Assembly (NCBI GenBank): GCA_035567075.1
Contig: DATMRC010000112.1
Coordinates: 5,805 to 69,804, forward strand
Source of the DNA: Steroidobacteraceae bacterium
Lineage (GTDB): Bacteria; Pseudomonadota; Gammaproteobacteria; Steroidobacterales; Steroidobacteraceae
Direction: 5' to 3'
DNA length: 64,000 bases
Position numbers and translations under genes: made by a program
Notes under the pieces: model-generated
Told to the model about the DNA's origin: nothing
Database searches by the model: none
Seen by the model: only the letters and a program-made list of their open reading frames with translations
In this document: positions 42,691 to 44,120 of the stretch, piece after piece
How positions within the stretch are numbered: position 1 is the stretch's first letter
Layout: each line of letters begins with the position of its first letter

Positions 42691-42922
42691 GGACTTAGGG
42701 CAAATCCCACGCGTATTTCTCTAGTCTACTATTGGTAGCCAGATGATCAATTGTCAAATCCTTGTGGATACTCGCACATCGGGACGGCCCGACTCGTGAC
42801 ATTGATCGCAAAATGGGCCACGTTGACTCGTTTTGGCATCCACAAGGCCCCAAAAGAACGGACCCACCGCAGGGGGGAGGGGGAGGGCTTCGCTACGTTT
42901 CCATCAAGAAACAGTCGGGCTG

Positions 42923-43444
42923 CTACTTGCACTGCGAGGGCGCAAAGCGCGCCAGGACAGTACCCGCAGTCGCCACCGTCATCGCAGGAACGGTATTCAG
43001 CGCGGTAGTGTTATTAAGGGAACTGCACGCCCAGTCAATGGCGCCCGTGTTGGTGCCGACGGCGGGCAAAAGCGCGTACGCACCGCCAACGTTGATCTGC
43101 GGCGTCAAGGTGATCGTGGTGCCGTTCAGCTGCGGCGTATTCGCGCCAAACAAAACCGTGATCAAGCCATTCGCAGCGCTAATGGTTATATTCGACACGT
43201 ACTTGGTCGGGGTAAAGGAGGTAAAGCCGGCGGATGCTGCAGCGACCCCATTGATCCCGTTGGACTGAAAGCCTTCGGCCACAAACGTCTTGGCAGAATC
43301 CGCGAGCCCGAGACCTTCCGTTACCTTCGCGCGAACCGCGTAGTCTTGGTAGGCGGGAATGGCGATAGCCGCCAAGATGCCGATGATGGCCACTACGATC
43401 ATCAATTCGATAAGCGTGAAGCCCTTTTGCGCTTTCTGGAACAT
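42923..43444 (-). CDS. pilA: Type IVa major pilin, downstream paralogue (copy 1)
   Basis: Prepilin leader and cleavage site [36 protein letters not shown]-terminal Cys...Cys disulfide loop (WACSS...SQCK). No Shine-Dalgarno upstream of ATG 43444. The listed ORF start 43534 would give an implausible 38-aa leader. Confidence 0.88.
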
Positions 43445-43532
43445 CTGGACTATGGTCGCATGCCGCTGTCGCTGGCCTCGTGACCGTGATCGCAAAATGA
43501 CCGACAGCGATGATTTGCCATCCGCGAGGCCC

Positions 43533-43564
43533 AAAAAAAAGAAGCCCCTCCGAGGAGGGGCTTC
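43533..43564 (-). terminator. Rho-independent terminator after pilin copy 2
   Basis: On the minus strand: GAAGCCCCTCC-TC-GGAGGGGCTTC followed by TTTTTTTT. It lies 35 nt after the copy-2 stop codon. Confidence 0.85.
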
Positions 43565-43598
43565 GCTACACGTTTCTTACAGCGAAACGCTTGTAGGC

Positions 43599-44120
43599 TT
43601 ACTTACACTGCGTCGGCGCATAGCGCGGAGGAGTGTTACCAGCGGTCGCGACTTGCATCGGCGGAGCGGTGTTTGTCGCAGTAACGTTACTACCAGAAGC
43701 GCACGCCCAGTCGATGGCGCCCGTGTTGGTGCCGACGAGGGGCAGCAATACATAAGCACCGGCAACGTTGACCTGCGGCGTCATGGTGATCGTAGTGTTG
43801 TTCAGTTGCGGAGTATTCGCACCATACGTAATCGTGATCAAGCCATTCGCAGCGCTAATGGTTAAGTTCGACACGTACTTGGTCGGGGTAAAGGAGGTAA
43901 ACGCAGCAGACGCCGCAGCGACCCCATTGATACCGTTGGACTGGAAGCCTTCCGCGACGGACGTCTTCGCCGAATCCGCGAGACCGAGACCTTCCGTTAC
44001 CTTCGCGCGAACCGTGTAGTCTTGGTAGGCGGGAATGGCGATGGCCGCCAAGATGCCGATGATGGCCACCACGATCATCAATTCGATGAGCGTGAAGCCT
44101 TTTTGGATATTCTTGAACAT
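43599..44120 (-). CDS. pilA: Type IVa major pilin, upstream paralogue (copy 2)
   Basis: [36 protein letters not shown]-terminal loop WACASG...TQCK. AGGAG lies 9 nt upstream of ATG 44120, and a sigma54 promoter lies about 70 nt upstream. The listed ORF start 44276 is spurious. Confidence 0.92.

Follow-up and report, generated by a model that had tools for sequence, protein, structure and literature searches.

A tandem pair of type IVa pilin genes with unequal expression signals in an uncultured soil gammaproteobacterium

The pilin locus and its expression signals

The window (the whole 64,000-nt stretch of DNA that was analyzed) came from the metagenome-assembled genome of an uncultured soil gammaproteobacterium (113 contigs, 81% complete). 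It contained two pilin genes in tandem, the upstream copy A at 43599..44120 and the downstream copy B at 42923..43444, both on the minus strand, as are all features given below except one palindrome to which no strand was assigned. Open reading frame coordinates and translations confirmed the earlier description of two 173-aa prepilins lying 676 bp apart, whether measured between the starts or between the stops. The copies were 84% identical in DNA and 83% identical in protein. Both had the features of a class III signal peptide (a short basic leader, of 8 aa in copy A, ending in Gly, with Phe+1, Glu+5, and a hydrophobic N-terminal helix). Pfam N_methyl matched both copies (2e-10 and 1.5e-10), and Pfam Pilin (PF00114) spanned residues 37-173 in both (E = 6e-18 and 3e-18). 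Cys140 and Cys172 were present in A and B and probably form the D-region disulfide. The best PDB match was pilus subunit 9xnc (6e-29), Neisseria PilE was matched at 1e-18, and these sequence matches to solved pilins settle the predicted pilin fold. Directly downstream, on the same strand (block 38745..42690), were pilB (40945-42690; Pfam T2SSE and MshEN), pilC (39701-40921; T2SSF), and pilD (38745-39662; Peptidase_A24), so the pil genes were all co-directional, as the earlier note had stated. Judged by sequence, A and B were shown to be two paralogous type IVa major-pilin genes. Two close pilin copies, and no more, were found in the genome (81% complete as assembled). An invertible switch of the Piv type, as in Moraxella tfpQ/tfpI, was considered and rejected: the copies are direct repeats, and there is no recombinase among the neighbors of the pair (TylF, AT3-SGNH, and pilB).

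Nine metagenome contigs from separate samples (JGI and ENA) matched the 1.6-kb region at 99.7-100%; this count is a lower bound, so at least nine independent contigs carry the pair. In a fragmented metagenome-assembled genome, the assembler could in principle have joined variants of one pilA gene from two strains, but all of these contigs, each an independent assembly, have this arrangement with its unique junctions, and the pair was also found in three sister lineages. An assembly artifact is therefore extremely improbable.

Copy A was preceded by a sigma54 promoter of the -24/-12 type (TGGCAC-N5-TTGCW), TGGCATAGCGCTTGCT (44189..44204), which is located 68 nt before the ATG and was the best match in the window, and by the Shine-Dalgarno (SD) sequence AGGAG (44128..44132; anti-SD duplex of -6.9 kcal/mol). 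It was followed by an intrinsic terminator (43533..43564) with a 10-bp GC-rich stem and T8 (-22.1 kcal/mol; the T-run was T7 in seven of eight other contigs). An Rfam search returned sub-threshold matches only, due to the terminator hairpin. Of the promoter-bearing pilA copies examined in the genus, nearly all had this sigma54 element 44-88 nt upstream, mostly at 65-77 nt; distal copies in three genomes (G164, G131, and G014) were the exceptions. A PilR-like sigma54-dependent response regulator was encoded at 54904..56979 (Pfam Response_reg, Sigma54_activat, and HTH_8), and control by PilR and sigma54 is thus predicted for copy A but not for copy B. As listed, this open reading frame is over-extended, with its receiver domain beginning at approximately residue 253. 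Upstream of the pilin promoter there was a palindrome, GTCACACAGTGAC (44315..44327), a candidate PilR activator site, and sister locus L068 had the near-identical GTCACTCAGTGAC in the corresponding position. A sigma70-type promoter was predicted for pilB (TTGACA-18-AATAGT, 42728..42757), and it was conserved in the sister loci L067 and L068 and in four further loci.

The start of copy B had an anti-SD duplex of only -1.5 kcal/mol, and the fold of its start region was more stable than that of A (-11.6 vs. -6.3). No GG-N10-GC site was found within 250 nt upstream of copy B, and neither a sigma54 nor a sigma70 consensus match was found in the A-B spacer, here or in the sister loci. The terminator copy after B (42851..42891) was decayed, its stem destroyed by a C-rich insertion and its T-run interrupted. 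A longer leader for B, starting at the in-frame TTG at 43534, was rejected, as this codon falls within the T-run of the terminator, lacks an SD, and would imply a leader of 37 aa. The earlier note had contrasted AGGAG, a canonical sigma54 site, and a perfect terminator at copy A with no SD and a decayed terminator at copy B, and each of these observations was upheld. The asymmetry is real and unusual for the genus, in which each of the other tandem pilA copies examined carries a sigma54 promoter of its own, mostly together with an SD, which nearly all of them possess; among approximately 45 pilA copies examined, B was the sole clear case with neither SD nor promoter. In the window, 31-62% of genes reached an anti-SD energy of -4 kcal/mol or better, compared with 23% of random 17-mers. 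Because many window genes lack a strong SD, its absence alone is no proof of poor translation.

The earlier note had also read TGGCAAATCATCGCTG as the remnant of a sigma54 promoter before copy B. The motif was found at approximately 43505-43520, 2 nt from the place given then, and this reading failed: the motif is duplicated pilA 3' flank, homologous to and aligned with GGATGCCAAAAC of the other flank copies, and the duplicated unit never contained the promoter. Comparable expression of A and B would require a B promoter that consensus scans do not recognize, for example one used by an alternative sigma factor, or CATAGT giving a near-leaderless start. Such a promoter would be consistent with the conservation of copy B and the purifying selection on it, and a -10-like CATAGT does end 4 nt before the B ATG. 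However, there was no acceptable -35 upstream of CATAGT, the scans found nothing in the spacer of this genome or of the sisters, and the spacer, clearly a duplicated 3' flank, evolves faster than its functional twin. Comparable expression from an own promoter of copy B is distinctly unlikely.

The duplicated unit and its origin

The A-B spacer (43445..43598) was a duplicate of the beginning of the pilA-pilB intergenic region, to which it corresponded element by element in single-copy relatives, and it ended in CCATAGTCCAG immediately before the ATG, without an SD. Pairwise nucleotide alignment of the two units, a check proposed in the earlier note, gave the 84% identity of the genes reported above and extended the duplication over approximately 150 bp of 3' flank, in line with the 140 bp first estimated. 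Identity in this flank was 64% overall and reached 91% in a 23-nt block, CATTTTGCGATCAATGTCACGAG (42793..42815; duplicate at 43477-43499), which is located upstream of the pilB promoter and was kept in all relatives examined. The spacer was found to evolve faster than its functional twin.

Three sister loci (L066, L067, and L068) shared this junction, located immediately after ...ATGCGACTAT(C), and had a similarly short period of 687-695 bp. The repeat unit common to the three sister lineages ran from the coding sequence through the terminator and reached ~145 bp into the pilA-pilB spacer, without the sigma54 promoter. Nine other arrays in the genus had longer periods (approximately 820-920 bp), with a sigma54 promoter before each copy and an SD before nearly all of them. 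The common breakpoints showed that the pair arose from one tandem duplication of a ~680-bp unit (coding sequence, terminator, and ~145 bp of spacer). This duplication is old because the three sister lineages have the same short unit. The flank tree was star-like and rejected neither hypothesis (p-AU 0.34 and 0.17), so that support for a single event comes from the common breakpoints and not from phylogeny. The left breakpoint was likewise shown to map to the Shine-Dalgarno, which left the sigma54 promoter, located upstream of it, outside the unit. From its origin, the second copy thus lacked a promoter and lay behind the terminator of the first, and the pair is of interest mainly as a clean and well-documented natural example of how duplication breakpoints decide the expression status of a new copy. 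The arrangement was shown to be common to a small gammaproteobacterial clade of uncultured soil bacteria, whose named matches were Steroidobacteraceae.

The sisters retained GGAG 5-8 nt before the ATG of the second copy, and loss of the SD was specific to this genome. In L067 and L068, the sisters with a complete pair, the downstream copies were also intact, as was the terminator after them. The comparison with the sisters indicates that copy B in this genome lost its SD through a junction approximately 11 nt shorter, and that it lost the terminator hairpin as well.

Divergence, gene conversion, and selection

Divergence between A and B was not uniform along the gene. A break, taken as a sign of mosaic history, was detected at codon 140, the first Cys, with 11.9% of nucleotides differing before it and 35.4% after it (maximum chi-square, permutation p 0.0005). 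At third codon positions, the difference increased from 20.5% before codon 140 to 50% after it (p 0.03), and at fourfold sites it was 25% vs. 50% in the D-region (n = 14, p 0.10), so the excess of synonymous divergence in the D-region was only marginal. Residues 9-138 had a dS of 0.33 and a dN of 0.06. Of the description in the earlier note, strong divergence inside the Cys-Cys D-region was thus retained, and near-identity up to residue 130 proved to be overstated. Positive selection on the D-region was considered (dN/dS 0.40) and is not established, because dS was also raised there.

The coding sequences clustered by genome and not by position (support for the paralogue pairs 93/95, 100/98, and 98/97). 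A tree holding positional orthologues together was 83 lnL units worse (p-AU 5e-79), and a 40-sequence protein tree gave the same grouping by genome, although the synonymous margin was small for the G000 paralogues (dS 0.42 within the genome vs. 0.44-0.65 between genomes). The grouping by genome indicates gene conversion, which, according to the trees, repeatedly homogenized both coding sequences within each genome. The Cys-Cys D-region of this genome appears to have been spared by conversion, and divergence is highest there. Conversion would thus keep two pilin genes alike while the exposed loop drifts apart. The exchange of C-terminal loops proposed in the earlier note is only partly supported: recombination between the copies occurred over evolutionary time, as the rejection of positional orthology indicates, but the C-terminal loop is the part that was not exchanged.

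In Neisseria, silent pilS copies are numerous and 5'-truncated, with neither a promoter nor the leader-encoding 5' part of the gene, and they depend on a G4-forming element beside pilE. The pair analyzed here resembles pilE/pilS in that a presumably expressed gene lies beside a promoterless homologue, divergence is found in the exposed C-terminal region, and recombination is non-reciprocal. Copy B could accordingly be viewed as a silent reserve cassette that donates its C-terminal loop for programmed antigenic variation, as pilS does to pilE; its missing promoter and SD, the peak of divergence in the surface D-region, and conversion over evolutionary time are what such a cassette would lead one to expect. 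Unlike the pilS copies, however, B is a complete prepilin with start codon, leader, and full N-terminal helix, it is the single extra copy in the genome (81% complete), and no G-quadruplex motif (G3+N1-7 x4) was found on either strand of 42401-44700. The D-region is precisely the unexchanged part, and the downstream copies of the sisters retain an SD. No chimeric allele was found in the nine contigs or among 5.8 billion protein clusters, in which rare variants are dropped by assembly. We regard a programmed cassette as very unlikely. The earlier note had suggested a reserve allele; one of the Neisseria kind is not supported, given the full-length prepilin with its intact leader, its lack of indels, and purifying selection about like that on A.

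Copy B had no indel in 522 nt, whereas 3-4 indel events were found in ~150 nt of flank, and it had no stop codon and an intact leader and cleavage site. Unique changes numbered 8 aa and 27 nt in A and 12 aa and 29 nt in B, the ratio of non-synonymous to synonymous changes was approximately 12:11 for B and 8:9 for A, and omega was roughly 0.3-0.4 for both. Copy B shows substitution patterns that point to purifying selection about equal to that on copy A. Loss of the SD and terminator could instead mark the onset of pseudogenization. If B were an incipient pseudogene, effectively unexpressed after these losses, its intact frame would simply reflect how recent they are. Its lack of both SD and promoter, singular among the pilA copies, its weak and more structured start, and the larger number of unique amino-acid changes in the downstream copies of the three lineages (24 vs. 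11, p 0.04) are consistent with decay. On the other hand, B contains neither a stop codon nor an indel, its unique substitutions match those of A in number and in non-synonymous to synonymous ratio, its sequence was invariant in at least nine contigs from different samples, and genes without an SD are frequent in the window. Incipient decay is, on balance, rather unlikely. For annotation, the second gene is best described as a full-length pilin paralogue, neither a silent cassette nor a pseudogene.

Proposed role of copy B and known pilin duplications

Copy B is probably a low-dose second major pilin that is expressed via terminator read-through, similar to the P. stutzeri pilAI/pilAII pair. 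PilR and sigma54 would drive transcription of copy A, and a minority of transcripts would pass the strong A terminator into copy B; with the B terminator gone, such transcripts may run on towards pilB. Copy B would be translated weakly, processed by PilD, and handled by the same PilBC machinery. The product would be a second major pilin that is scarce and differs from A in its surface loop, and it may co-assemble into the fiber or modulate pilus function. Read-through is deduced solely from the absence of recognizable promoters, and one served by another sigma factor may be present.

Graupner and Wackernagel are said to have found, in 2001, that P. stutzeri pilAII lies downstream of pilAI and is co-transcribed with it at approximately a tenth of its expression; PilAI and PilAII reportedly share about 55% amino-acid identity, and PilAII reportedly antagonizes transformation. 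In both cases the gene that immediately follows pilA on the same strand encodes a full-length major-pilin paralogue. The pair described here differs in being much closer (83% vs. about 55% amino-acid identity), in its concerted evolution, and in the intact strong terminator between the copies. A more speculative and fairly doubtful extension is that selection, and not chance survival, maintains a pilin without a promoter behind a strong terminator. The terminator would then serve this clade as a fixed "dose divider" that holds a second major pilin, differing in its surface loop, at low stoichiometry in the fiber, or else B would be a PilAII-like brake on pilus function. Conversion between the copies would supply new combinations of surface loops under pressure from pilus-specific phages or grazers.

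Several major-pilin-like genes per type IVa machinery are also known from Xylella fastidiosa (PilA1, PilA2, and PilA3) and Legionella pneumophila (PilA1 and PilA2, ~72% identical); only some of them are the main fiber subunit, and their mutant phenotypes differ or are opposed (PMC9956873, PMC13170364). Unlike the pair described here, they are described as separate functional genes, and no report was found in the Xylella and Legionella literature of a promoterless copy made by a breakpoint or of conversion between copies. The duplication is genuine, though of an ordinary kind for pilins, and is no Neisseria-style store of silent variants: it has a complete and single second copy, no G4 motif, and no chimeras in nine contigs. 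It opens no new question, as major-pilin paralogues with unequal expression have been described before, in Pseudomonas stutzeri, Xylella, and Legionella among others. As in cases of concerted evolution such as tufA/tufB (survey PMC6053082), the paralogues were closer within a genome than to their positional orthologues and the flanks diverged, whereas homogenization here was partial and old (dS 0.3-0.4) and stopped at the D-region.

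Structure and neighborhood of the pilin pair

The upstream pilin gene, copy A (43599-44120), and the downstream gene, copy B (42923-43444), were identified on the minus strand by open reading frame and Pfam analysis as type IV prepilin genes of 173 codons each. Both matched Pilin (PF00114) and N_methyl, and both encode an 8-residue leader with Gly as the last residue and two Cys (residues 140 and 172). The nearest solved structures were the cryo-EM pilus subunit 9xnc (6e-29) and then Neisseria PilE (1e-18). An earlier note had described two 173-aa prepilins 676 bp apart with a duplicated 3' flank, and pairwise comparison confirmed this: the offset was 676 bp start to start and stop to stop, identity was 84% for DNA and 83% for protein, and the likeness ran approximately 150 bp beyond the stop codon (64% overall, with one 23-nt block at 91%).

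The exact copy B sequence was present in 15 contigs. Nine of these, from separate JGI and ENA samples, were compared, and all nine carried this pair with these neighbors (1.6-kb region, 99.7-100% identity with the window), which rules out an assembly artefact. The only recurrent difference was in the T-run of the copy A terminator (43533-43540), which was T8 in the window and one other contig and T7 in seven otherwise identical contigs; the variation may reflect either sequencing noise at a homopolymer or a genuine length polymorphism, which would then tune read-through.

The genes pilB, pilC, pilD, coaE, and zapD directly follow the pair on its 3' side and share its strand. Divergent genes for a TylF-type methyltransferase and an AT3-SGNH acyltransferase lie on the upstream side, flanking the pair in every contig of sufficient length, and a PilR-like sigma54 activator is encoded approximately 11 kb away. 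The pair is embedded in an island of tailoring genes (44450-47648 and 48076-54790), to which the two divergent genes belong and which also includes two class I methyltransferases, a GT2, and a TPR-sulfotransferase. N-x-T and S/T patches were abundant in both pilins, and a link between the island and pilin modification is possible.

Expression signals and duplication breakpoints

As the earlier note had proposed, only copy A has both an AGGAG Shine-Dalgarno (SD) sequence and a canonical sigma54 promoter. The sigma54 site TGGCATAGCGCTTGCT, the best match in the window, lies 68 nt before the copy A ATG; the SD forms an anti-SD duplex of -6.9 kcal/mol, and the gene is followed by a terminator with a 10-bp GC-rich hairpin and T8 (-22.1 kcal/mol). 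Copy B has no recognizable promoter: neither a GG-N10-GC site, sought in the 250 nt upstream, nor a sigma70-like site upstream was found. Its anti-SD duplex reached only -1.5 kcal/mol, its start region was more structured than that of copy A, and its terminator has decayed as claimed, the stem being destroyed by a C-rich insertion. An SD strength of -4 kcal/mol or better was found in 31-62% of 45 long open reading frames of the window vs. 23% of random 17-mers; SD use is thus not universal, and the missing SD of copy B predicts weaker translation rather than absence of translation. The sigma54-like remnant TGGCAAATCATCGCTG reported before copy B did not hold up, because it aligns with GGATGCCAAAAC of the other flank copies and is ordinary 3'-flank sequence.

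Approximately 110 nt upstream of the copy A promoter lies a palindrome, GTCACACAGTGAC (44315-44327), kept as GTCACTCAGTGAC in L068, a related locus (1017-1029); it is a candidate PilR-type enhancer site.

The survey covered 150 genomes of the window's genus, which is very large, and approximately 45 pilA copies were inspected. Nearly every copy had TGGCAY-N5-TTGCT 44-88 nt upstream (mostly 65-77 nt) and CAGGAG before the ATG. Tandem pilA arrays were common (14 of the 74 matching genomes). Nine had a period of approximately 820-920 bp (G009, G157, G138 with three copies, G130, G110, G144, G159, G140, and G143), and in these each copy had its own sigma54 promoter and nearly each an SD. In two of the nine (L064 of G140 and L065 of G143) the tandem copies were interrupted, with open reading frames of only 44-128 aa and, in G140, TGA stops within the matches; each interrupted copy keeps a perfect sigma54 promoter, and either gene breakage or frameshifts in the assembly may account for the interruptions.

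The nearest metagenomic relatives (sister loci L066, L067, and L068; 76-80% identical to copy A) resembled the window, unlike the long-period arrays: their period was 687-695 bp, and their A-B spacer had an intact terminator and lacked a promoter-like site. One pilA-pilB spacer architecture was common to the single-copy genomes G072, G120, and G124 and the last copy of G009, in the order terminator, TTTTGCGATCAAnGTCACGAG, GATATGCGACTAT, TTGACA promoter, pilB start; the conserved sigma70-type promoter before pilB is TTGACA-18-AATAGT. In the window and sisters, the A-B spacer is a copy of this spacer as far as GATATGCGACTAT(C), and it leaves the true pilB upstream sequence at the same point in all four lineages. 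We conclude that one ancestral duplication took in the coding sequence together with the terminator and approximately 145 bp of spacer. Its left breakpoint lay at the SD, on the downstream side of the promoter, so that the second copy was promoterless from birth. In the sisters, GGAG precedes the second ATG by 5-8 nt and the terminators of both copies are intact, whereas the window's A-B junction is approximately 11 nt shorter (CCATAGTCCAG before the ATG vs. CTATCAACCACAGGAGCAAGAA). By this comparison, the losses of SD and terminator in copy B are specific to the window's lineage.

The blocks TTTTGCGATCAAnGTCACGAG and GATATGCGACTAT (42793-42815 and 42775-42790, just upstream of the pilB promoter; duplicates at 43477-43499 and about 43453-43465) were kept in all relatives inspected, distant single-copy ones included (for example, L005, L024-L026, L067, and L068). 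They look like a candidate binding site for a pilB regulator.

Gene conversion and constraint

Judged by their divergence, the copies are not recent. Whole-gene dS was 0.42; codons 9-138 showed a dS of 0.33 (dN/dS 0.18) and the D-region, the C-terminal Cys-Cys loop (codons 139-173), a dS of 0.81 (dN/dS 0.40). The strong divergence noted earlier inside this loop was borne out, a max-chi-square scan placing a breakpoint at the first Cys codon (nucleotide 420). Nucleotide differences rose from 11.9% before the breakpoint to 35.4% after it (P = 0.0005), and those at third codon positions alone from 20.5% to 50% (P = 0.03); at 4-fold sites, which are few, the contrast was not significant (P = 0.10).

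The paralogues evolve in concert. In the codon-alignment tree with the sisters they clustered by genome (support 93/95, 100/98, and 98/97), and constraining the copy-1 genes together was 83 lnL units worse (p-AU 5e-79); a 40-sequence protein tree gave the same clustering for G009, G157, G138, and G110. This clustering and the junction that the lineages share indicate that the copies underwent gene conversion once the lineages had separated. The flank tree resolved no grouping. In pairwise comparison, the two flanks of this genome had lower identity (64%) than positional counterparts did (70-73%), so conversion tracts seem limited to the coding region. The D-region of this genome seems to lie outside them, or not to have been covered recently.

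Unequal expression signals and A/B conversion partly support the earlier reading of an expressed pilin plus a poorly expressed or reserve allele. A Neisseria-type silent cassette is unlikely: copy B is full length and is the sole extra copy, no third close pilin copy being found in the genome (an 81% complete MAG in 113 contigs); no G4 motif was found in 42401-44700; no A/B chimera occurred in the contigs compared or the protein collection; and the variable loop is the very part without exchange. Besides copy A, its protein cluster contained only a variant with 99% identity (P0003) and a longer start call.

Substitutions and indels showed copy B to be under constraint. Sister-polarized unique changes numbered 8 amino-acid and 27 nucleotide changes in copy A and 12 and 29 in copy B (P = 0.5), with similar non-synonymous/synonymous ratios, and no indel was found in the 522 nt of copy B vs. 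three to four events in approximately 150 nt of flank. Across three lineages, downstream copies had more unique amino-acid changes than upstream copies (24 vs. 11, P = 0.04), and synonymous changes did not differ significantly (35 vs. 25); the surplus fits lower expression or mild diversification. Early pseudogenization of copy B in the window's lineage, where its SD and terminator were lost, is a serious rival that we regard as rather improbable.

In the favored reading, copy B would be transcribed by read-through of the copy A terminator and, with no working terminator after copy B, such transcripts would run on toward pilB. Translation of copy B would be weak; PilD would process the product, and the same machinery would use it at low dose, as a pilin whose exposed loop differs. 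Among described systems, the nearest analogue of copy B is pilAII of P. stutzeri, reportedly downstream of pilAI, co-transcribed with it, expressed at approximately 10% of the pilAI level, and antagonistic to transformation. Xylella PilA1-3 (PMC9956873) and Legionella PilA1/PilA2 (PMC13170364) show that the roles of related major-pilin paralogues are often unequal or opposite. The pair is of an ordinary kind, namely major-pilin paralogues in tandem whose expression signals are unequal and between which gene conversion occurs. The comparative detail of a promoterless copy made by the duplication breakpoints, kept in four lineages and then stripped of its SD and terminator here, is a tidy but modest addition.

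The pilin pair of G009 (L005, 1501-2028 and 2336-2863) was 96.8% identical in DNA, promoter and SD included. Its dN (0.037) exceeded its dS (0.022), and its 11 amino-acid differences were concentrated in residues 88-130 and the D-region, a pattern that suggests a very recent duplication or conversion followed by diversifying selection.
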